64,000 bases of DNA from a virus, in the IMG/VR virus record IMGVR_UViG_3300045988_118736. One strand, given 5' to 3'. Both the position numbers and the translations under genes were made by a program. The notes under the pieces are model-generated. The model saw only the letters and a list, made by a program, of their open reading frames with translations. It made no database searches and had not been told where the DNA came from. Shown one piece after another: positions 19,647 to 60,400 of the stretch (the stretch's first letter is position 1; the number at the start of each line of letters is the position of its first letter).

Positions 19647-19993
19647 AAAGAAAAATTAGAAGAACAGGAGAGATAATAGACGTAATCACTTTCAGTAGCT
19701 CAACTACAAGAAGCGACCATGACAGAATACAGTTCTATGGTGATAATGGGAATGTGATAAGTGAGAGTTTAAATTTTTATCTCGATACCCTTCCTGTAAA
19801 TGACGAAAACAAAGATGTAGACTGGGAGCAACGTAGATTCGATCTTATCAAGGCTTATTCTATTGAGTTTGTTAAAGCACAAAATAGAAAAGGTGAAATA
19901 GATTGCGGAGTATATGTACCAGATGTGGTGTCATGGTCTATAACTATAGCAGATAGAATCATAGAGGCGATGAGAGGAGTTAAAAATGCTTGA
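19643..19993 (+). CDS. hypothetical protein (116 aa)
   Basis: ATGA overlap. Confidence 0.5.
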   Translation: MKRKIRRTGEIIDVITFSSSTTRSDHDRIQFYGDNGNVISESLNFYLDTLPVNDENKDVDWEQRRFDLIKAYSIEFVKAQNRKGEIDCGVYVPDVVSWSITIADRIIEAMRGVKNA

Positions 19994-20999
19994 TTTTAGA
20001 AAATACGAAAACGTACCTCGGTTTCAACTTGACCGCAGGCCGGGCAGGAGCCGACTGAAGCTAACCTGCCCGGCTTGCGGAAAAAGCCGGTGCCTCACTC
20101 CTTATATTGATGTGGCAACAGGTCAGGTTGTTGGAAACGAGTTCGGAAGATGTGATCATGAACGGACTTGCGGTTATGACAAACGGCCTACCGGCAAGGA
20201 TGTGGGCGACAAAGATCTTTGGATTTCTGGGAATAAGTGTATAAGAGCTTATCGCCCTCCTGTAAATCCTGATGTTGTAAATTACATACCTTTTAGCGAG
20301 TTTGAGAGGACTGTGGTTCCAGATGATAGAAATACTGTGTTTAGGTTTTTATCGTCTCTATGGGGAAAAGAAAGGGTATCTGACGTGTTTAGAAGATATC
20401 ATGTCGGAACAATGGACTTATGGGGATGGAAAGGGTGTTGTATATTCTGGCAGATAGATAAGGATTTTGTATGTAGAACTGGCAAAATCATGGACTTTTA
20501 TATAAAGACCGACAGCCAGGGTAATGAGATTGATGTAAAAAGAGTGAAGGAAAAAGAAGGTGACAATGAACGACCTCATGTTATGTTTTATCACTCGTTG
20601 CATGCAAGAGACTTCTTGTTTAGACAATGCCTGTTCGGAGAGCATCTTCTAAGCCAGTATCCGGATAAGGTGGTTAATCTGGTGGAATCAGAAAAGACGG
20701 CTATTATATGCGCTGTGAATAAACCAGATGAATTATTTGTGGCCACCGGAGGGTTGCAGAATCTAAGGCCGGAAGTGATAGATGTTTTAAAAGATAGAAA
20801 GACTGTAGCTTTTCCGGACAAAGGACAAGCATTTGAGACATGGAGTAAAAAGATAGATGGGATGATGATGAAGTCAAGGATAAAAGTATCAGACTATCTT
20901 CAAAATGTTGAAAATGTAGGAGACGGAGATGATGTGGCAGATTTGATAATTAATAACAAGGTAAAAGAGAAATATCATGAGCCTGGATGTTTATATTAA
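19986..20999 (+). CDS. DNA primase-like protein (N-terminal Zn finger, C-terminal TOPRIM-like), 337 aa
   Basis: CPACG...CDHERTC; VESEKTAI...ATGG...FPDKG acidic motifs. Confidence 0.5.
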   Translation: MLDFRKYENVPRFQLDRRPGRSRLKLTCPACGKSRCLTPYIDVATGQVVGNEFGRCDHERTCGYDKRPTGKDVGDKDLWISGNKCIRAYRPPVNPDVVNYIPFSEFERTVVPDDRNTVFRFLSSLWGKERVSDVFRRYHVGTMDLWGWKGCCIFWQIDKDFVCRTGKIMDFYIKTDSQGNEIDVKRVKEKEGDNERPHVMFYHSLHARDFLFRQCLFGEHLLSQYPDKVVNLVESEKTAIICAVNKPDELFVATGGLQNLRPEVIDVLKDRKTVAFPDKGQAFETWSKKIDGMMMKSRIKVSDYLQNVENVGDGDDVADLIINNKVKEKYHEPGCLY

Positions 21000-23566: not shown

Positions 23567-24169
23567 ATGAGACTAACAGTAGAAGAAAACGAATACCTGA
23601 TAAGTAAGTTCCTTTTGGTTCTTACTGAGTTTGCAGGAGATGAAAGAGAGATGTTTTTAATCAACTCCATACATGATAAGGCGGTGGCGGATATGAATTA
23701 TCGTCTTCCGTCTTTAATAAGCAGAGAACGTAAAAGACGAGTCATTGAGCTCCTTAAAGAAGGAACCAGAATAATCAAGGACTTTTCCGGCTATGCAGGT
23801 GATATGGGTATGATTAACGAATACGATCGCCTAAAGAAAGAAATAGGAACCGTCCAAGACCAGCTTGGTGACGTAGAAGGTCAACTTCGGGCAGCAGGAG
23901 AAGTTATTAAAAAAGAACTTGATATGATTGCTGACCGAATCAAAGAAGATCTTCTTGACCGAGAGCTGGCCAAAAGTAATGCCGAGGCCGAAAGAAAAGC
24001 CAAAGTAGATCCGAGATACGAAGTAGCTTTAGGTGATTACAAGGAGATGCTGGAAGTGATTTTTACAACCAGAAACAAGTATTCTACGGTAGATTCTGTA
24101 CATGACGATCTTCGACAGTCGGTATCTACCGGTAGAAATTCGATTATTAAAGAAGGGTACAACAGTTAA
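23567..24169 (+). CDS. hypothetical coiled-coil protein (200 aa)
   Basis: ORF. Confidence 0.5.
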   Translation: MRLTVEENEYLISKFLLVLTEFAGDEREMFLINSIHDKAVADMNYRLPSLISRERKRRVIELLKEGTRIIKDFSGYAGDMGMINEYDRLKKEIGTVQDQLGDVEGQLRAAGEVIKKELDMIADRIKEDLLDRELAKSNAEAERKAKVDPRYEVALGDYKEMLEVIFTTRNKYSTVDSVHDDLRQSVSTGRNSIIKEGYNS

Positions 24170-24184
24170 AAACAAGGAGGAAAT

Positions 24185-24382
24185 ATGGAAAAGAAGGAAT
24201 TTAAAGTAGGAGAAGTATTTACTGCCGGACTTGTAAGATTAAAATGTGTGGAAGGTGATACATGCGATAGGTGTATATTCGAAGATTACGATTCTTGTTC
24301 ATGTACAGACATAATTATTGGTCCATGTGGACATGTTGATAGACAAGATAACAAGAATGTTATTTTTATTAAAGCTGATTAG
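24185..24382 (+). CDS. small Cys-motif protein (65 aa), paralog family CDRCIF
   Basis: TCDRCIFEDYDSCSC matches 3041 and 5128 ORFs. Confidence 0.5.
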   Translation: MEKKEFKVGEVFTAGLVRLKCVEGDTCDRCIFEDYDSCSCTDIIIGPCGHVDRQDNKNVIFIKAD

Positions 24383-24384
24383 GC

Positions 24385-25098
24385 ATGTACATCAATTTCA
24401 GACAACTTGCAGCATCAGACATGACTCCTAATGATCTTGCTAATCTTCTTGCCATAAGACAGAAGGATTCGGTTATGATCGAAGCCATGCCGGAAGAAGA
24501 TGCTGGGAGGTATATAGAGCTTGGCCTGGTTGAGAAATTAAAATCAGGCGTGATGAGATTGACCAACAAGGGAACGTCTTTTGTGAATTATATAGAGACA
24601 CCGGAAATGACAGACGAGGTTCTGGAAACGTTGAAGATTATGATAGGGATGTACGAATCATATTCAAAAGACATAGGTGTCAGCAGAAAAGAAGCGGAAT
24701 CCAGATTGTGTTGGTTTATGAGTAACACCTCATTCAAGAAAGAGGTCATACTTCAGGTAACGGAATCTTATATAGCAGAGTCAGGAGATTATACAATGAG
24801 CTTATGTAACTTCATATGGAAACCGCCTTCTCAGGCCTTTTCGGTCCATATGAACCTTAAAAATTCAAAGCTCTTTGACTTAATAGCTGAAAAATTTAAG
24901 ATCGCTACCGAGCCTTATTTGGAGTCTAAGAAGAATAAGGAAATGGATTGGTTGTTTGCCGTATCTAAATTGCCTACGCCGCCGGCTAAAGGCAATCCGG
25001 ATTATTTGTTTACCGGAAGTTCTGAAACAGACAAAGAGCGATTGAAAAACATAAAAACGTATTTATTTAACAAAATTAGAAAGCAATGGAAAAAGTAA
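24385..25098 (+). CDS. hypothetical protein (237 aa)
   Basis: ORF directly upstream of ACP-like gene. Confidence 0.55.
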   Translation: MYINFRQLAASDMTPNDLANLLAIRQKDSVMIEAMPEEDAGRYIELGLVEKLKSGVMRLTNKGTSFVNYIETPEMTDEVLETLKIMIGMYESYSKDIGVSRKEAESRLCWFMSNTSFKKEVILQVTESYIAESGDYTMSLCNFIWKPPSQAFSVHMNLKNSKLFDLIAEKFKIATEPYLESKKNKEMDWLFAVSKLPTPPAKGNPDYLFTGSSETDKERLKNIKTYLFNKIRKQWKK

Positions 25099-25337
25099 GA
25101 ATCAGAAAGATAATAGAGGATATAATTATTACTCAGTTTCTTAATTCGGAAATAGATATAGTTCATGAAGAAGATGTGACGTTTAAAGAACTTGGATTAG
25201 ATTCTGTTGATCAAATTGAACTGGAAGTGATGGTGGAACAAAAATTCAATATTGTTATTATTGATTATGATATGGAGACCATCAAAGATATGACTGATCT
25301 TGTTTACAAAATAATAACAGAAGGGTATGGGAAGTGA
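25086..25337 (+). CDS. acyl carrier protein-like (83 aa)
   Basis: LGLDSVDQIELEVMVEQKFNI matches ACP helix-II DS(L/V)D..EL motif; acidic. Confidence 0.65.
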   Translation: MEKVRIRKIIEDIIITQFLNSEIDIVHEEDVTFKELGLDSVDQIELEVMVEQKFNIVIIDYDMETIKDMTDLVYKIITEGYGK

Positions 25338-25821
25338 CATAATTTTATGCATGGCTTTAATAGCGTCATTTGCTTTTGTTATACAGTTTTTGTTGTCGAT
25401 ATTAGGATCTGATCTGGATACGGATATTGACATTGACAGTGCTTCTGATTTAAGCATGTCTTTGTCGGACATCATATCATTCAAGGGCATAACACATTTT
25501 ATTCTTGGATATAGCTGGACTACCTACTTTTCGGGTTCCCATTTAGTAGGGATCGTAATAGGGTCGTTTTTCTTTATCGTTTTGTTTTATGTATATAAGT
25601 TACTTCTTAAGTTAAAGCAAGAAATGGTGTACGAATGTCCGGAAGATTTAAATGGCAGAGAGGTGGAGATAGTGTTTAGATCAGGGAAGAATCATTATAT
25701 GGTAAATATTTCGAAAAATGGAAGACAGGAGCAAATGAGAGTAAGATGCTTGTCTGGAAAAACTTACAAAAACGGTGACAAGGTGAATATAAAATACGAA
25801 GAAGGAGAACTAAGTATCTAA
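25327..25821 (+). CDS. NfeD-like membrane protein (164 aa)
   Basis: N-terminal TM helices plus C-terminal beta-rich segment; directly precedes flotillin as in yuaF-floT. Confidence 0.55.
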   Translation: MGSDIILCMALIASFAFVIQFLLSILGSDLDTDIDIDSASDLSMSLSDIISFKGITHFILGYSWTTYFSGSHLVGIVIGSFFFIVLFYVYKLLLKLKQEMVYECPEDLNGREVEIVFRSGKNHYMVNISKNGRQEQMRVRCLSGKTYKNGDKVNIKYEEGELSI

Positions 25822-25853
25822 TTTTTTTTATCAACAATTAAATTTTAAAAGTT

Positions 25854-27554
25854 ATGACAACAATCATGTACGTGTCAGCTATCTTAGCTGTAGTGATTAT
25901 TTTAACAATCATCGGAGTCTTATCAAGGTATCGTAGATGTAAGCCTAATCAGGTCTTGGTTGTTTACGGTAAGACAGGTGGGGAAAAGAAGTCGGCGAAA
26001 TTATATCATGGTGGAGCGGCATTTGTCTTGCCTATTATTCAAAGCTATGATGTTTTGTCAATGGAGCCTATGCAAATAGATTGCAAGCTTACCGGTGCTT
26101 TGTCATCTCAGAATATTAGAGTAGATGTACCTACAACCATTACAGTAGCTATCAGTACAAATCCCGAAATCATGCAAAATGCGGCAGAAAGACTTTTGGG
26201 AATGGATACCGAATCTACTGAAAATCTTATTACGGACATCGTTTACGGTCAGATGCGTTTGATTATTGCCGAAATGACGATCGAAAAACTTAATTCTGAC
26301 AGGGATGAGTTTTTAGATAAGGCAAGAAAGAACATTGATAACGAGCTTAATAAGTTAGGTCTTTACCTCCTGAACATCAACATCAGTGACATTAGAGACG
26401 AAGCCGGTTATATTATGAACCTTGGTAAGGAAGCTGAAAGTAGGGCTCTGAACGAAGCACAGGCTAATATCGAAGAACAGGAGAAGCTGGGTGCTATTAA
26501 GATTGCTGTACAGCAGAAGGAGAAAGAAACGGCTGTAGCTAATACCAAAAAAGAACAAGAGATTCAAATTGCTTGTACTGAAAAAGAAAAGGAAACGATA
26601 GTAGCTGAAACGAAGAAAGAAAAAGAAATAGCTTTAGCTTTAACCGATAAAGAGAAACAGATCGGTGTAGCTCAAGCAGATAGAGACAGGGCTGCGGTTA
26701 TCGCAAAAACTTTAACCGACAAGGAATCGGCGATCGTAAGATCTAAGGCAGAACTTGAAGTAAATAAAGCCGAGGCTGAAAGGATGGAAGAAGTCGGAAA
26801 GAATAAGGCTGAAGCTGACAAGGAAGCAGCTATAGCAATACAAGACTCTGAAGCTCAGATTAAGAAGGCTGAGGCTGAGAAAAATGCGTCTATAGGATAC
26901 AACAATGCCCAGAAGGAGGTTGCTGTGTCAGTATCAGAACTACAGATCATCAAAGCTCAATCAGAGAAGAAGGCCGGAGAAGAAAAAGTTAAATCGGAAG
27001 CGGCTGTAAAAACAGCAAAAGAGCTTGCTGATAAAGAAGTGGAAGAAGCTAAAGCTAAGAAGGTTCAGGCTGCGCTTAAGGCTGAAAAGATTGTGCCGGC
27101 TGAAACCCAGAAGGAAGAGGCTATCTTGCAAGCTGATGCCGAGGCCGAGAAGATCAAACGCCGGGCTGAGGCTGAGGCCGCAGCACATTTGGCAAAAGCC
27201 GAGGCAGAGGCAAAAGCTATTCAGATGAAGCTGGAGGCAGAAGCCGAAGGTAAGAAAAAGTCGTTAATGGCAGAAGCCGACGGATTTAAGGCTATGGTGG
27301 AAGCAGCAGAATCCAATCCTCAGATCGCCATCCAGTACAAGATGGTTAATCAGTGGAAAGAAATTGCTGGAGAACAGGTTAAGGCATTTGAGCACATTAA
27401 CCTCGGAAATATCACGGTATTTGACGGCGGTCAGAACAGTACCGGTAATTTCCTTAACAATGTTGTCAAGACCGTCGCTCCGGCATTGGGAGTCATTGAT
27501 CAGCTTCCGATTGCAGATACTTTAAAGAAGCTAAAAGGAGATGACAAAAAATAA
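25854..27554 (+). CDS. flotillin-like SPFH/band-7 protein (566 aa)
   Basis: N-terminal TM, YRRCKPNQVLVVYGKTGG...GGAAFVLPIIQ SPFH core, long EA-repeat coiled coil as in FloT. Confidence 0.85.
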   Translation: MTTIMYVSAILAVVIILTIIGVLSRYRRCKPNQVLVVYGKTGGEKKSAKLYHGGAAFVLPIIQSYDVLSMEPMQIDCKLTGALSSQNIRVDVPTTITVAISTNPEIMQNAAERLLGMDTESTENLITDIVYGQMRLIIAEMTIEKLNSDRDEFLDKARKNIDNELNKLGLYLLNINISDIRDEAGYIMNLGKEAESRALNEAQANIEEQEKLGAIKIAVQQKEKETAVANTKKEQEIQIACTEKEKETIVAETKKEKEIALALTDKEKQIGVAQADRDRAAVIAKTLTDKESAIVRSKAELEVNKAEAERMEEVGKNKAEADKEAAIAIQDSEAQIKKAEAEKNASIGYNNAQKEVAVSVSELQIIKAQSEKKAGEEKVKSEAAVKTAKELADKEVEEAKAKKVQAALKAEKIVPAETQKEEAILQADAEAEKIKRRAEAEAAAHLAKAEAEAKAIQMKLEAEAEGKKKSLMAEADGFKAMVEAAESNPQIAIQYKMVNQWKEIAGEQVKAFEHINLGNITVFDGGQNSTGNFLNNVVKTVAPALGVIDQLPIADTLKKLKGDDKK

Positions 27555-27762
27555 ATACAATGGCCCAAGGTTACACTTGGGCCTAATTGAAGAAATAAAA
27601 GCAGCATTCATAGATTTCCTGCCGGCAGGGACAGTGATTTTAAGTGCTTTACTAATTACGATATTTTTAACATGGATTTTGGACAAGATTTAGAACCAGA
27701 AGAACTGAACAAGCATTATGATCAGTGTTATGGAATTGATTTTGAAACAGAAGAAGAGGAGG

Positions 27763-28077
27763 ATGAAGAGTATGACTGACGAGGAATTTGTATTGGATAA
27801 TAAGAAAAAGGTTGTTGTAAGAAAAAGAATATCTTATTTAAACAAAGGAGATAAAGTATGGATTGTGTCTTCCGACGGGTATCTGCTGCACACGGACGTA
27901 GTTAGAGCCGAACGCGGACGGTCTTATGTGGATATAGACGGGATTCTGTATTGGAAGCGAGGATTAGATGGTAAGCATCGTAATCGTAATAACTACATGC
28001 AGTTTGCCATGACACCAGAAGACGGTAAGAAGTATGTCGTATATTACCCGGAAGGATTTAAAGACAATGACTTATGA
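27763..28077 (+). CDS. hypothetical protein (104 aa; trimmed to ATG 27763)
   Basis: GAGGAGG RBS before ATG 27763. Confidence 0.5.
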   Translation: MKSMTDEEFVLDNKKKVVVRKRISYLNKGDKVWIVSSDGYLLHTDVVRAERGRSYVDIDGILYWKRGLDGKHRNRNNYMQFAMTPEDGKKYVVYYPEGFKDNDL

Positions 28078-36592: not shown

Positions 36593-37081
36593 ATGGAAAA
36601 GAATTTAAAACTCGTATGTCCAAAATGTGGCACCCCTCACCAGCCTCATTCTCCGCACACGATGGATGCAGATGGATTTGAAAGGTGTGAGATAAGAACT
36701 GTCATGGAAGACAGGGGGTGGTGCTACGAATGCTCTTTTTGGCAAAATATGTACGACAAACACAAAGACGATCCGGGATGGGTTAGGATAGACGGTGTAA
36801 GCTGGGTGCTTAAGCCTATGGTGGAAAACGTACCGAGCGGATGGAACAGCCTTGGATGTGGTGGAAGAAAAATGTATATCAATATCGAAGGGAAAGGCAT
36901 TGTTGTATCAAATAACTGCTGGTGTCAAGGTGATGTTTCGGATGCATTCAAGGATCTTATGCCTGATAATGCTACTTGGGCTACGAAGGAGGAATTTGAC
37001 AAAGCTCCTGTAGTAGGATATATTATAGAAGGTGTTGGTTTGGTTTTCACAGATAGGGGAGGTCATGAAGTTAATGCTTAG
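36593..37081 (+). CDS. Cys-rich hypothetical protein (162 aa)
   Basis: CPKCG...CEIR...CYEC; last plus-strand gene before terminators. Confidence 0.5.
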   Translation: MEKNLKLVCPKCGTPHQPHSPHTMDADGFERCEIRTVMEDRGWCYECSFWQNMYDKHKDDPGWVRIDGVSWVLKPMVENVPSGWNSLGCGGRKMYINIEGKGIVVSNNCWCQGDVSDAFKDLMPDNATWATKEEFDKAPVVGYIIEGVGLVFTDRGGHEVNA

Positions 37082-37087
37082 AAACTT

Positions 37088-37110
37088 AGGTAATTATATA
37101 CCTTTTTTTT
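37088..37110 (+). terminator. terminator AGGTA-ATTATA-TACCT then T8 for plus-strand block
   Basis: 5-bp stem plus T8 right after 36593..37081. Confidence 0.65.
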
Positions 37111-37156
37111 CATAACAAAAGAAACCGGTTCTCTATCATCTCTGACTGAGGACCGG
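37111..37156 (-). terminator. terminator for minus-strand giant gene (stem CCGGTTCTC / GAGGACCGG, T-rich on minus)
   Basis: 9-bp stem with one GU, 14-nt loop; convergent with 37088 terminator. Confidence 0.55.
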
Positions 37157-37294
37157 CAAGAAAACAATTTCAGAAAAAATTTAACCTACATAATCTTTCA
37201 AGTAAGAACAAAAAAACGTACAATCTACTCTTTGACGATGCTAATATAACATATTGGAATCATACAAAAACAATTCAAGTCCGATATTCTTCGT

Positions 37295-40200
37295 CTATTT
37301 ATAACTTACATCATCGTCCCCTTCCGAATCAGGAGTAGCGCCGATGAAGAACATCATTGACTTGTTGTTCGTCTGCTGCCACCAATTATAGGCGCGCGCT
37401 ACGTCTTCCGGCGTCTTGATATTATACCATTGTTTGATAAACGTCTGTTTGGCGAGTTGCCTAAATAACTTAGACTCTCCCTTGTATGTACCGGATGTTA
37501 CTTTATCAAGTGAATAATTCCTAAGATCGGTAAGATCCTTCAGTTTTCGCCCCATAACAAACGGGTCGTTAATGATATCTACCACATTAAGCTCCATAAT
37601 AAACGGCATCTGTGAAGCTATTTCGTTTATGGTTCTGAATCCTACGTAGGATCCGAATTGAGTAAGCCAACTTTCCTCGTTTTCATCATCATCACGCCAC
37701 CCGGCAAGAAGCATAGATACGGCTTGCATGATAAGGAACGTGCCGGCATAGACACTGAGACGTTTTAGATTGGTTTTCTCTACCTCATTCATATTGTCTT
37801 TATTTTCATTCCAGGCATCTATGATGTTTTTCATACCAGACTCGGAAGCCAGGCTAAATGTTTTGGCTATCATATTCTTTAACGTAATTGACAACCCTTC
37901 CTCTTCTTGCATTGTCTGGAAATTGAAGCCACGTCTTTTCCACAGACGTTGAGCCGCCAGCACCAACCATCCTCGGTGGGCGGTCATGAACCTCGCTATC
38001 CAGTTGCGTGATGCGGCAGTCCGGTTTTCTTCATTCAAAGATCCGTTACATATCTGAGACAAGCTACGAACTTGATTACGGGTTATAGCCATTTGGGTTT
38101 CAACTTCCTCGGCAGTAACACCCGATCCAGGTTTTACGACCACCTTTCCATCCACGACGTCTACCATACTCCATAAAGTACGATCTTTTAATGCATTCCA
38201 TTCTCTTTTTATAGTACTCTGTTCTTTATTGCGTTCTTTTTCCATCTTGAAATCCTGGAACGTGTAGAACCGACCTTTGTAATAACGAACATTGTCCATA
38301 GTAGCAATCATGACCTGCGGATCAAGAGGGTAGTTCAGGATTTCCATAAAAGCATACATAGGTGAACGCATTAAGGTCCTGGCCACTCTATTGTATCCGG
38401 CACCATACATACGATTTCGGATATTGAATATCCCCATTCTCTCACCTATGACATATAATTTGCTTTTCCTATCTATGTCTCCGGTTTCTGCTATACAAGA
38501 TGGAGCAAGGCGTGAAAACTCAGCCGATGCGTATTTAAGGGAATCTTTGCTTATATACTGTCCTACGGCAGATTCCATGATGAGGTTGATATGACCTGTT
38601 AAGGCGCCGGTAGCTGCCACAAACGGAGACAGTGCCAAGTTCATGACCGACATAAATCTTTCAACAGCCATCATAATTCTTGTAAGGTCTACCGTATATC
38701 CTCCGATGTTCACCGTAAGTTTTTTGGTGTTCATCCTAATGCCATAATAATGATCGTTGAAGAAGTCTCTAAACATCTGATATGCTTGAGTCGCTTCAGC
38801 TTTCTTCCCGCCTTCAAATTGCTTATTCAGTAACATCTGCTCCAGTCCCTGAGCGAGCTCTATAGACTTCTGCTTTTCGTTGTATAACGATGACTGCATC
38901 ATAAGCATCGAATAAGAGTAGCCAAAATCGTGAGATACGTCATCTTGGTTCTCTAATTCATATATGTAGTATTTAGGTATGGACCGAACCCTATCTTCCG
39001 GATCATATACCTCACCCTGGCGTGTTTTACCATACAGGGAGTCATCTACGCGGTCAAGACATAAGTCGGATACGAAGTTCCTGACCGTACTTTTAAGGCT
39101 GATACCTAACCCTTCTATACGTTCTATATCTTGTTTGGATATCTGTGGAATAGCATACAGATTAGGGCTCTGCTCTTTATATAGATCAAGGGATTGTCTT
39201 TTTATTTCCTTGAGTTTTTGAATCATATTCCATTGCTCTACGTTTTTAGTAGCGACCTCATTACCATCAGCATCATACTTAATGCCGAAGTCGTTGAAAT
39301 ACGATTCATCACGATACAGGCTCTTCTTGGGCATACGATGACCATACCCATGATCTTTTACATAATCAGGGTTACGACCGCTATTTTCGGCCTCAGATTC
39401 AGCCACCCACGCTCTTGCAGGGTCGAAAGACAGGTATGATATATCCATACCATAATCTTGTGTGGAAGTCCCATTCTGTACGTCCTTAACCATCTGCGCC
39501 ACATCTATCTCACCTCGACCTATTTTGTCGATCATAGCCGCATATCCGGTAGGCGCCATGCGTTTATAGTACGAAAAGACTTGGCTCCTGGCAAATTCAT
39601 TAACGATATCGTTCACTTCAGCTACTCCGTTATCGTGTCCAAATATGTCAGACATCTTAGCTCTAACCGCATTCCTAAAATCTCTACGATCTAGCTTTTT
39701 ATCTATTCCCAATTTTTCTGACAAGTAGTTGGTTTCAGAGACGGTAAACATATACCTGTTATCTTGAGCCATGAATAACTTATCTCTAAGAGCCTGAATC
39801 CTTTTGGCTTTTTTGGCAGTAGTATGACGCTGTGCAAACTGCCATTCAATTTCCTTAGAGTCAGCAAGAGCATTTAAATAAGACTGATTGACTTCGTTTT
39901 CAGCTTTACTGCTTTTAGTAAGGTACTTATCAATATCTTCAAGACCCACCATCTTAGCATAATCTATTAAGATAGCGTAATCGGCTTCAATAGCTTCAGA
40001 TGCAGCCCTAAAAGCATCTCTTTCAGATGAGGTAAATGTCGCTTCGTTAATCTCTCCGATATCAGCCACATCTCGGTTGTTTCCGATTATTTCCTTGATA
40101 ATGGCCTTATTTTTTTCTATATCTTTTACAATAGAATCCACGTCAGTCGCATCTCTATCACTTGTCGTAGAACTAATGATATCATGCGCCATTTTAAGAT

Positions 40201-57400: not shown

Positions 57401-60400
57401 AGAACACGAGCCGATTCTTTGTCTATAGACCATCTCGCATGATAAGGCAGTTCAATTATAGTAGCCGTTTCACCACCTATGTTAAGAGAATACCTTTTAG
57501 TGCCATTAGCGTTCGTTTCAGAGCTTATTTGAATAGGAACCAATGATTTTATGGAAGATATAAATTTATCGGCTCTAAGACCCGCAATTTCATACCTTTC
57601 ATTGCCATCATTGGATATTCTTCTTACCATCAACGTCTCTGGATTCTGGGCGCTATCTATGTTGGCTCCCGGCGTATTGTCGGATTCATCTAACTCATTT
57701 ACAAGAGAATCTATATTGGTATCATCCTCCCCGAAATTACTTAACGTAGATTCAGAGATACGACCTTTATCAATAATCCTGTTTTGCTCGATATAAGGAA
57801 GGAGGTCAGTGATATTTCCAACTTGGCCAAGATCTTCTATGGTAAATACCGAATCGGCAAGCTTATCTTCGTCAACTTTCTCCCCTTTGTCCCGTCTGTT
57901 CATTATATCAACATACGAAGAAATAGCATCATCAAGTTCCTTCCTTTGATCTGGTTCTAAATTGGATTTAGCCATATCAATAATAGCTTTATTATCCTCA
58001 TACACAGATCGATGTTCAGTAAGTCTCTTAACTTTATCTGATAAATCTTTTATCATCTTAGCCGGACTGTCTCCAAGAAATGATATGTAATCATCAATAT
58101 CCTGCTTGTATTTATCATATATCTCCTTCTCTCTTGGAGATAAAAGATCTTGATTACCTGTATATATCTTGTCTACTATACGCTCTCTAACCTCTATAGG
58201 TGCAGACGAAAGATCTTCCATAGCCAACTCATAATCAAAATCAGACAATATATCCTCTTTCGGTTTCTGAGTTATACCATCATTTAAATGACCAAATACT
58301 TTCATTGTAAATGCCTCATCTGAATCTATTTCACCATTGTTCAGGAGTTCATTTATTTTTTCATCTAAACTGATATTGTCTCCTTCCTGGTTCTGATAAA
58401 AACGATCACTTTCTATAGGCTTGGTATCGGATGACACCATATCATTTAAGAACTTAGAGAATAAAGAAAAATCGTGTCTCATAAATTTCTTATCCTGCAT
58501 AGAGTTCATGAATGACCGTAGAACCTTATATTGGGTAATAGCTTGCTGGTATTTTACCACCATCTTTCTTAAATCCTCTGCTTCTTTCTTCCCCTTATTG
58601 TTCTCGATATAAGTGCTTAAAGAAGCAACAGAATCATAAGCTTTTAATATATCTTCAGCAGTTATCGTTTCAGATTTAAACAACTCAAGAGCTGATACTC
58701 CAGGATCAAAAGAATAAAATACTTCTTTATAACTACTAAGAAGATCTTCTGACAACCTTCTATATTCCTTATTAAGATTATCGTATTTAATAGTTTTTTG
58801 TTTTATAGCCTCTGCTTCGGTATCATTACCGTCCTCTACTCTTCTCGGAGTTGTAGCCAACCTCTCTATTTCAGCATTCAGATCATTGATCTCATTACGC
58901 AATTCCCTTAACTGATTAGCTGTATCAAAAGCTTGACTTGATAATGAATAAAACGTATTTATATCATCAAACAAATTATTGTCATTTACATAATCAGCAA
59001 TATCATTTGATGTTTCCATTGCTATATCCTCTGCATCCAAGCCTTTAAATACAGCATTAGCAACATTAGACCGGTAAAGATCGGATGATGTTTCAGCAGT
59101 AACAGCCTCAGCGAAAGAAGAAGCTTTTTTATAATTGGCTAACTTCTTATCAAAATCTTTTATAATATCTTCCTTGTATTTTTTAACAGTTTCTTCATCT
59201 ACTTTCATTTCAGAAGCCAACTCACTTTCGTCAAGGCTTTTAACCATTGACCTGAAATTGTTAGCCGTATCCTCTAACATTCCCATTCTGTCAGATAATT
59301 CAAATTTAGAATAATAATCTGATTCAGGATCATTCATTTGAGCATTAAATTCGGCTAAATTTCGCATAGAGTCTTTTACAGATTGAGAAGTAAAAGCATT
59401 ATTACTATTAAATTTCTCAACATCAGTATTAATAGTACGCTCTTTATTTCTCCTTTCATATAAACCAAAAGCACCATTTCTGGCTCCAAATAAACCACCA
59501 ATCAGGGCTCCTATGCCAATCTCTTTCAATCCTTCTTTGGTTGTAAATTGTTCAGCTATGGCCTTAGAAAAAGAATCAACTATAGAAGACGTAGCATCAA
59601 GATACGTCTTATCATATCTTGATCTAATAAAATCTTCCCCCATGCGCTGAGCAACACCTTGCATGCCTTCCTCCCATACACCTTCAGATATGGGTCTTTT
59701 AGATACATTCCAAACAGTAGCTAAGGATTTCTGGAATAAATTTGCTTTTACCGTCTGTAATCTTCCAGCATCACCCGCCACCTTCTTAGTTCCTAATCCA
59801 AACAAATAACGATCTACAAAACTCTTTGATCCCCTATATGTGTTTGATACACCCTTTAATCCAGGTATGTATTTAGAAGCAAAACCAGTGTCTACTCCAA
59901 GATATTTTCCCAGAAGAAGATAATTGGATAATCCAACTATACCCATATTAGCTAAGAATATGCTGTTTGCCGTATCGGAAATAGAACTCTTAAATTCAGC
60001 CATCTCAGACTGATTAGGATTCCGACCATACATATTTTTAAAATATTCCTTGTATTTACTTTCAGAGTCTTTCATGAAGGACTGAGCTTCCACGGCAGAC
60101 TCCCAGCCGGCGCCCACAAACGTATTTACTCCTACCTTGGCCACATTGCCTATGGCCCTGCCGTACATCGCTCCTGCTCTATACGCTCCAAAAGCGGATT
60201 TTACAGCACTTGCCGCAATCTTAGACGCTGCCATCTTTCCGGCCACTCTCATCCCTACTTTAGCGCCAACAGCTCCAAGACTTGACACACCCATCCCACC
60301 TGTAAGGTAGGCAGACAGAATAGCGCCTGTCGTAAACGATAGACCATTTCCAATAACATCATTAAAAATAAAATTTGCAGTTCCAAGACTCTGCAAAAAT

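Follow-up and report, generated by a model that had tools for sequence, protein, structure and literature searches.

Flotillin and NfeD genes in bacteria and phages

In Bacillus subtilis (YuaF-FloT) and in Escherichia coli (YbbJ-QmcA and YqiJ-YqiK), a gene encoding a membrane NfeD protein with a C-terminal OB domain is located directly upstream of a gene encoding an SPFH protein (PDB 2k14, 8z5g). SPFH genes have also been listed in phage genomes since 2006, for instance in Vibrio phage KIT04 (as 'flotillin family protein'), in the T4-like phages 44RR, Aeh1, and RB43, or, as a moron, in Stenotrophomonas phage DLP5, and can be viewed there as accessory or moron scaffold genes. Other phages encode acyl carrier proteins (ACPs), small acidic phosphopantetheine-binding (PP-binding) proteins with a DS motif that are grouped in PHROG 5934, such as g153 of the Yersinia jumbo phage fHe-Yen9-04. 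The locus analyzed here brings these genes together: an ACP-like gene, an NfeD-like gene, and a flotillin gene follow one another in a 64,000-nt stretch of the IMG/VR record IMGVR_UViG_3300045988_118736 (hereafter the window, to the whole of which all positions refer). We consider it probable that the last two genes form a host-derived, conditionally useful membrane-scaffold cassette, and that the neighboring phage ACP, which evolves fast, is independent of it.

The region is 97.7% identical at the nucleotide level to GenBank OR575929.1, the 151-kb genome of an epsilon crAss-like phage from human stool, which was deposited as 'phage csAssE-Sib' and is named crAssE-Sib in the corresponding paper (Babkin et al., 2024, Viruses 16:513, PMC11054128). 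The four genes of interest are annotated in this relative as hypothetical protein, acyl carrier protein, transmembrane protein, and flotillin family protein, respectively. The paper covers taxonomy, a diversity-generating retroelement (DGR), and repressors; the words flotillin, acyl carrier, ACP, NfeD, transmembrane, or lipid do not occur in its text, and the paper says nothing of an NfeD-like protein, a bacterial origin, or deletion polymorphism, all of which are described below. A first-pass annotation of the window, made from the letters alone, had named routine annotation of the trio in close relatives as an operon of known function as grounds for giving up its interpretation: the genes are indeed annotated in this close relative, but not as such an operon. 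No other epsilon-type genome was found among GenBank phages, and when viral contigs were scanned with the flotillin, the NfeD-like protein, or the flanking nuclease, or with the nuclease of a sister lineage (L006, see below), only the same abundant species was returned. This is not a new kind of system: GenBank has annotations for the genes, and both SPFH and ACP genes had been listed in phages before. New here are the NfeD-like assignment, the Bacteroidaceae-type origin of the pair, the recurrent loss of flotillin under strong constraint, and the decoupling of the ACP.

Four open reading frames (ORFs) were confirmed on the + strand, at 24385-25098 (ORF237), 25086-25337 (ACP-like protein), 25327-25821 (NfeD-like protein), and 25854-27554 (flotillin), and the peptides LGLDSVDQIELEVMVEQKFNI and GGAAFVLPIIQ were both found in the translations. 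ORF237 and the ACP gene overlap by 13 nt (25086-25098), the ACP and NfeD-like genes by 11 nt (25327-25337), and a 32-nt gap precedes the flotillin start at 25854. The overlapping junctions noted at first are thus present as described; however, about 12 such junctions exist within 20-32 kb, overlapping stop and start codons being the general style of this gene block, and they therefore do not specifically indicate that these genes belong together. The replication-gene context was borne out as well, with a DnaB-like helicase, a DUF6371 primase, and a PD-(D/E)XK nuclease in the surroundings, as judged from profile matches and from the annotation of the relative.

The NfeD-like/flotillin pair and its bacterial counterpart

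The 566-aa product of the flotillin gene matches both the Band_7 (PF01145; E 7.6e-26, 91.7 bits, cutoff 23.6) and the Flot (PF15975; E 2.1e-9, 38 bits, cutoff 27) families, in agreement with the SPFH identity proposed at first, as well as the human flotillin-1/2 chains solved by cryo-electron microscopy (E 6.8e-23 for human flotillin-2, 9bq2). Its translation, read by eye, displays an N-terminal hydrophobic anchor (residues ~4-24), followed by the SPFH/Band_7 domain, an Ala/Glu/Lys-rich coiled coil (~200-450), and the C-terminal Flot domain. The score against the FloT equivalog model of NCBIfam (NF058507) is 144.5 bits, far under the 700-bit cutoff, and the protein is accordingly classified, on its profile matches, as a flotillin-family protein of the Bacteroidota type rather than as a FloT ortholog.

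The 164-aa product of the preceding gene is less readily named. It has no match to the Pfam NfeD family (PF01957) even at E<1, nor any usable match in Pfam, NCBIfam, PHROGs, or PADLOC, and the label 'NfeD-like' thus needed structural support. An AlphaFold2 (AF2) model (mean predicted local distance difference test, pLDDT, of 73.5) displays three predicted transmembrane (TM) helices at residues 2-25, 52-69, and 72-100, a disordered acidic loop containing DTDIDID, and a six-strand C-terminal β domain of the OB type (pLDDT ~85) that resembles solved NfeD domains; its best PDB match with Foldseek is YbbJ in the E. coli QmcA-YbbJ SPFH-NfeD complex. While a word-index search with this protein returned the phage clade only, an exhaustive profile search yielded 418 representatives of an NfeD-like family (clustering at 50%), mostly 160-180 aa long, whose named members are Bacteroidia. 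Only one of 82 family members reaches Pfam NfeD PF01957, at 6e-5, and the best PDB sequence match of the 82-sequence profile is YuaF (2k14), over the whole C-terminal domain, at an E-value of 0.01 only. YuaF and YbbJ are thus the best profile and structural matches of the protein, and a viral homolog with 34% identity bears the UniProt name 'NfeD-like C-terminal domain-containing protein'. With no Pfam NfeD match on one side and 144 of 700 bits for FloT on the other, the phage pair is made of distant relatives, and not orthologs, of YuaF-FloT, YbbJ-QmcA, and YqiJ-YqiK.

A much closer counterpart is found in Bacteroidota. Scanning one genome per bacterial species with the flotillin alignment identified 80 loci, and an NfeD-like gene lies directly upstream of flotillin, on the same strand, in 78 of these Bacteroidota loci, which confirms the earlier statement that NfeD-flotillin pairs form a bacterial operon. 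On the four bacterial contigs inspected, the NfeD-like gene is followed in every case by a gene for a 517-545-aa Band_7 protein, and the flanks are unrelated and devoid of a PP-binding gene; more generally, none of the 80 loci has an ACP-like ORF within ±4 kb. The operon of B. thetaiotaomicron, B. xylanisolvens, B. faecichinchillae, and Leyella stercorea has the same two genes as the phage locus and agrees with it in gene order, orientation, lengths, and domain layout. The phage copy differs in that it is located in a replication block, with an ACP gene ahead and a phage-specific 50-aa membrane ORF after it, and in that its presence is polymorphic. A literature search on Bacteroides, flotillin, and NfeD was empty, and this Bacteroidota operon thus appears unstudied.

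The best matches of the phage flotillin are from Bacteroides species and Leyella (65-66% local and ~70% global identity). Identity between phage and Bacteroides is ~70% for flotillin and ~40% for the NfeD-like protein, as compared to 84 and 47%, respectively, between B. thetaiotaomicron and Leyella; both partners hence diverge in proportion, which fits a joint acquisition of the two genes from a Bacteroidaceae-like donor. On the phage side, flotillin matches of any kind were found in only 11 of 50,697 GenBank phage records, and the flotillins inspected among these, of KIT04 and MT835492, are only 26-31% identical to that of the window and have neither a recognizable NfeD-like partner nor an ACP. 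This wide distribution in bacteria and narrow distribution in phages argues for a transfer from bacterium to phage. From these sequence comparisons, the NfeD-like and flotillin genes were most likely captured from a Bacteroidaceae-type bacterium by an ancestor of these epsilon crAss-like phages. A separate pair was observed on a phage-like contig (Logan ERR11472868; L174:1-14462), where at least 10 tRNA genes form an array that contains NfeD-like (40% identity) and Band_7 (35% identity) genes, without an ACP; this looks like an independent instance on a mobile genome.

Loss and constraint in the phage population

To avoid a bias toward the module itself, the phage population was sampled by anchoring on the flanking PD-(D/E)XK nuclease. 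The set of four genes is complete in 46 of the 74 IMG/VR loci that could be evaluated; another 24 are without flotillin and retain ORF237, ACP, and the NfeD-like gene, and the remaining four have other deletions. De-duplication of two such samples led to 104 distinct haplotypes, where flotillin is intact in 69, ACP present in 100, and the NfeD-like gene present in 99; the reverse situation, in which ACP and the NfeD-like gene are gone and flotillin is kept, is a rarer deletion type (two haplotypes). Contigs lacking flotillin originate from several metagenome datasets.

Mapping of the junctions with blastn revealed at least nine different deletions. The commonest flotillin-minus allele (junction 25824/25826->27663/27666) lacks the 1841-nt segment 25825..27665, i.e., flotillin and most of the following small ORF, orf50, and the other junctions are 25848->27664, 25990->27575, 26543->27559, 25621->27141, 25598->27182, 25348->27194, 25932->27729, and 25700->27729. 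Some deletions fuse the N-terminal TM region of the NfeD-like protein to the C-terminal Flot domain of flotillin, creating chimeric ORFs (e.g., of 212 aa; L010:6001-6639, L249, and L209) that gene callers report as Flot-domain proteins. The only divergent sister lineage in the comparison, L006, has flotillin at the same place (82% identity, versus 61% for the NfeD-like protein), indicating that the flotillin-minus alleles are losses and not the ancestral state. Co-occurrence of the trio in related phages, a check proposed at first, is seen in crAssE-Sib and L006, and flotillin is deleted in about one-third of the haplotypes.

When present, flotillin and the NfeD-like gene are under strong purifying selection: the pairwise ratio of nonsynonymous to synonymous polymorphism (pN/pS) among population copies is 0.044 for flotillin and 0.073 for the NfeD-like gene, with a pS of ~0.15-0.21 for both. 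For comparison, the nuclease gene has a pN/pS of 0.054, and orf200 (23567-24169) is near-invariant (0.007). In flotillin-minus genomes, the NfeD-like protein is full length in 21 of 22 distinct variants, with a pN/pS of 0.09, and ACP and ORF237 are likewise unchanged. Because the NfeD-like protein stays intact and constrained after flotillin loss, it can probably also work with the flotillin of the host, which is ~70% identical to that of the phage.

The human gut harbors epsilon crAss-like phages in abundance, and hundreds of contigs carry this locus. A flotillin gene that is strongly constrained when present yet repeatedly deleted amounts to a ready-made natural genetic experiment: following flotillin-plus and flotillin-minus strains across hosts or samples could reveal under which circumstances a flotillin scaffold is an advantage in infection. 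The retained NfeD-like gene likewise offers a handle on NfeD-flotillin partnering. The function of the bacterial pairs is poorly understood, especially in Bacteroidota.

The acyl carrier protein

The ACP gene (25086..25337) encodes an acidic 83-aa protein that matches the PP-binding family PF00550 above the curated Pfam cutoff (E 6.8e-6, 26.7 bits, cutoff 20.8) and the PHROGs family phrog_5934 'acyl carrier protein' (2.1e-8). Its alignment to solved ACPs with phmmer (~1e-5) spans residues ~6-78 and places LGLDSVD onto LGLDSLD or LGADSLD, with the serine of DSV at that of DSL; Ser40 is thus the candidate phosphopantetheine site, and the initial reading of this gene as ACP-like with a conserved serine was correct. 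All 16 ACP equivalog models of NCBIfam score far below cutoff (best 30.3 bits, cutoff 71), which, at the level of sequence profiles, makes it a putative ACP-fold protein and not an ortholog of any named ACP. The nearest ACP of a GenBank phage is 41% identical over 59% of the length, and in the phage of the window no lipid or polyketide enzyme is annotated alongside; among the best 120 matches listed by a word-index search, only near-identical copies were seen.

Ser40 is retained in 224 of 226 population copies, a Tyr replacing it in the two others. In the sister lineage L006, the ACP is only 35% identical while its neighbors are 61-84% identical to their window counterparts, and it nonetheless keeps LGLDSLD and passes PP-binding at 32.7 bits. 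Within the population, ACP has a pN/pS of 0.44 and is thus about ten times freer to change than flotillin or the NfeD-like protein. Nine ACP protein alleles are common to flotillin-plus and flotillin-minus genomes, and ACP identity between these two groups equals that within groups. The absence of a phosphopantetheinyl transferase (PPTase) or acyltransferase, first remarked upon for the window, extends to the full annotation of the 151-kb OR575929 genome, which includes no fatty-acid enzyme either; modification of the phage ACP would hence need the PPTase of the host. In summary, this is a genuine PP-binding protein with its serine, with no tie to the flotillin pair beyond adjacency.

Possible roles of the pair and of the ACP

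If it behaves like its homologs in the solved flotillin and QmcA-YbbJ complexes, the phage flotillin would be anchored in the inner membrane via its N-terminal hydrophobic segment and would oligomerize through its coiled coil and Flot domain to form a cage on the cytoplasmic face, on which the three-TM NfeD-like partner could dock via its cytoplasmic OB-fold domain. During infection, the phage pair would then supplement or re-shape the host's own flotillin microdomains; our guess as to the most likely effect is that the inner membrane is kept organized and intact over the infection cycle. The pair is seen here as an accessory gene set: the strong constraint on it when present points to a benefit under some conditions, and the loss of flotillin from about a third of wild haplotypes indicates that it is dispensable.

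Several observations weigh against a host-derived scaffold cassette next to an unrelated ACP. The role of bacterial flotillin/NfeD pairs is poorly defined, which makes the membrane maintenance step weak. The gene order ORF237-ACP-NfeD-like-flotillin is kept in L006, together with the same overlaps, and both ACP and the NfeD-like gene are kept where flotillin is lost, leaving room for a link between these two. The pN/pS of ACP rests on an 83-codon gene, and many of the replacements are conservative (V/I/L, E/D, or T/S), while the population sample is dominated by one IMG/VR dataset (3300045988). As to the name of the 164-aa protein, generic OB folds score nearly as well as YbbJ against its model; the NfeD-like assignment of the first-pass annotation is therefore retained on the basis of fold, topology, and synteny, and the protein is not filed as a member of the Pfam NfeD family.

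As to the benefit of the pair, the main rival explanation is that NfeD-like and flotillin are conflict genes, blocking superinfecting phages at the membrane or shielding the cell from membrane-disrupting abortive-infection effectors. Conflict genes of conditional use typically show presence/absence polymorphism and many independent deletions, as observed here, the pair is located within an indel-prone stretch that is also hit by insertions of a mobile HEARO RNA (see below), and SPFH genes appear among the morons listed for other phages. However, neither these two proteins nor ACP match any defence model in PADLOC-DB (ORF237 and the 119-aa protein encoded downstream, orf119, have marginal matches only, E ~0.01), the two proteins are highly conserved rather than diversifying, and Bacteroidota chromosomes have the pair almost without exception, between unrelated flanks and not in defence islands. 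A role in conflict is thus rather unlikely.

Another possibility concerns ACP alone, which could be a decoy rather than a working carrier: as an acidic mimic, it would bind ACP-dependent enzymes of the host, or further partners of ACPs, and redirect host lipid metabolism during takeover. In addition to its fast evolution, its variable sites bunch directly after Ser40 (positions 41, 43, 47, and 48) and at 58-65, and the former segment corresponds to what we take to be helix II, with a role in partner recognition in ACPs. The polymorphisms there are V/I/L at 41, Q/R/K at 43, E/D at 47, and V/M/A at 48. The lack of annotated cognate enzymes in the genome and the low scores against all NCBIfam equivalogs would also fit a decoy, as would the PHROGs category of phage ACPs, 'moron, auxiliary metabolic gene and host takeover'. 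Against this, the near-invariance of the serine and the conservation of DS(L/V/I)D in both lineages suggest that the prosthetic group matters, and most replacements are conservative, so that we regard a decoy as unlikely.

The first-pass annotation had instead suggested that the genes may form one lipid-linked module, possibly with ORF237. In such a system, an acyl group carried by the ACP would be delivered at a flotillin/NfeD platform, remodeling the membrane for replication or assembly compartments. The tight packing, with overlapping stop and start codons at the ORF237/ACP and ACP/NfeD-like junctions, speaks for such a system, as do the persistence of order and overlaps in L006 in spite of an ACP identity of 35%, and the retention of the ACP serine. 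Most of the data nonetheless speak against it: ACP is absent from the neighborhood of all 80 bacterial operons and from that of the other phage flotillins inspected, flotillin is lost in about one-third of the haplotypes while ACP stays, with ACP alleles common to both classes, selection regimes differ about ten-fold, no enzyme for acyl loading or transfer is annotated in the whole genome, and overlapping junctions are the rule in this gene block. A single module is consequently not supported as the interpretation of the locus, and we judge it quite improbable.

A more restricted version, in which ACP and the NfeD-like protein, and not flotillin, are the real functional pair, would account for the fact that both are kept upon flotillin loss, that their ORFs overlap, and that the arrangement survives in L006. 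Host-modified holo-ACP docked at the three-TM NfeD-like protein would then hijack host flotillin microdomains, a scenario to which we attach little probability; the same low credence applies to its possible outcome, such as localized acyl transfer or lipid remodeling at a membrane-bound replication or assembly site. If true, this would be a virus-specific membrane-tethered acyl-carrier system without bacterial counterpart. Lastly, that the cassette is a functionless passenger, gained by illegitimate recombination and now being lost, would explain why deletions are frequent and heterogeneous, but is hardly credible given the strong purifying selection on both genes at substantial pS and the maintenance of the pair in L006.

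Neighboring genes and mobile elements

The ORF located upstream of ACP, ORF237 (24385..25098, + strand), encodes a conserved 237-aa phage protein with no usable match in Pfam, PHROGs, NCBIfam, or PADLOC, and is found in crAssE-Sib only among GenBank phages. It is 76% identical in L006, has a pN/pS of 0.051, and is present in all sampled haplotypes; a single-sequence AF2 model has a pLDDT of 33.8, too low to read a fold. Its size raised the question of a PPTase-like or acyl-transfer enzyme, a reading for which no support was found. ORF237 is probably not part of the flotillin cassette. Just upstream of it, a 65-aa Cys-rich ORF (24185-24382) is the least constrained gene of the block (pN/pS 0.85), with two allele classes that are ~62 and ~95-100% identical to the window copy, respectively.

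On the other side, orf50 (27541..27693, + strand) overlaps the flotillin stop and encodes a 50-aa protein that ends in a hydrophobic C-terminal helix; OR575929 lists it as hypothetical, and L006 has a 52-aa counterpart. Its pN/pS is 0.35, and it is lost along with flotillin in the major deletion allele. We considered whether orf50 could belong to the bacterial cassette and rejected this, since a comparable small ORF follows flotillin in only one of 70 bacterial loci; judging from its sequence distribution, orf50 appears to be phage-specific.

About one-fourth of the haplotypes have an insertion of ~365 nt that corresponds to the HEARO RNA of Rfam (RF02033, of the IscB-associated omega-RNA type), with a match to the full model at L178:5289-5533 (+) (96.1 bits for a gathering score of 83, E 8.6e-19). 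The insertion point is window position 27720/27729, just upstream of the 119-aa ORF at 27718-28077, and a few contigs have the insertion at other positions. No ORF is adjacent to this RNA, and neither the window nor the crAssE-Sib stretches examined contain it. The HEARO insertion was rejected as a cause of the flotillin deletions, being present in 14 of 69 flotillin-plus and 10 of 32 flotillin-minus haplotypes. Outside the window, OR575929.1 has two divergent TnpB genes (58986-60125 and 64190-65413) as well as a DGR cassette. Considered along with the orphan HEARO RNA, these elements suggest that OMEGA-type mobile elements are active in this phage population.

Within the replication block, the putative primase (19986-20999) is a Zn_ribbon_16 plus DUF6371 protein (E 1.5e-41); primases of the epsilon group have been placed outside the clade of all other crAss-like primases (PMC11054128). 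Both GC skew and AT skew flip sign near 37-38 kb (window ~37000-38000), where genes switch from the + to the - strand, a point that, by the annotation of the relative, separates the replication/early block from the structural genes.

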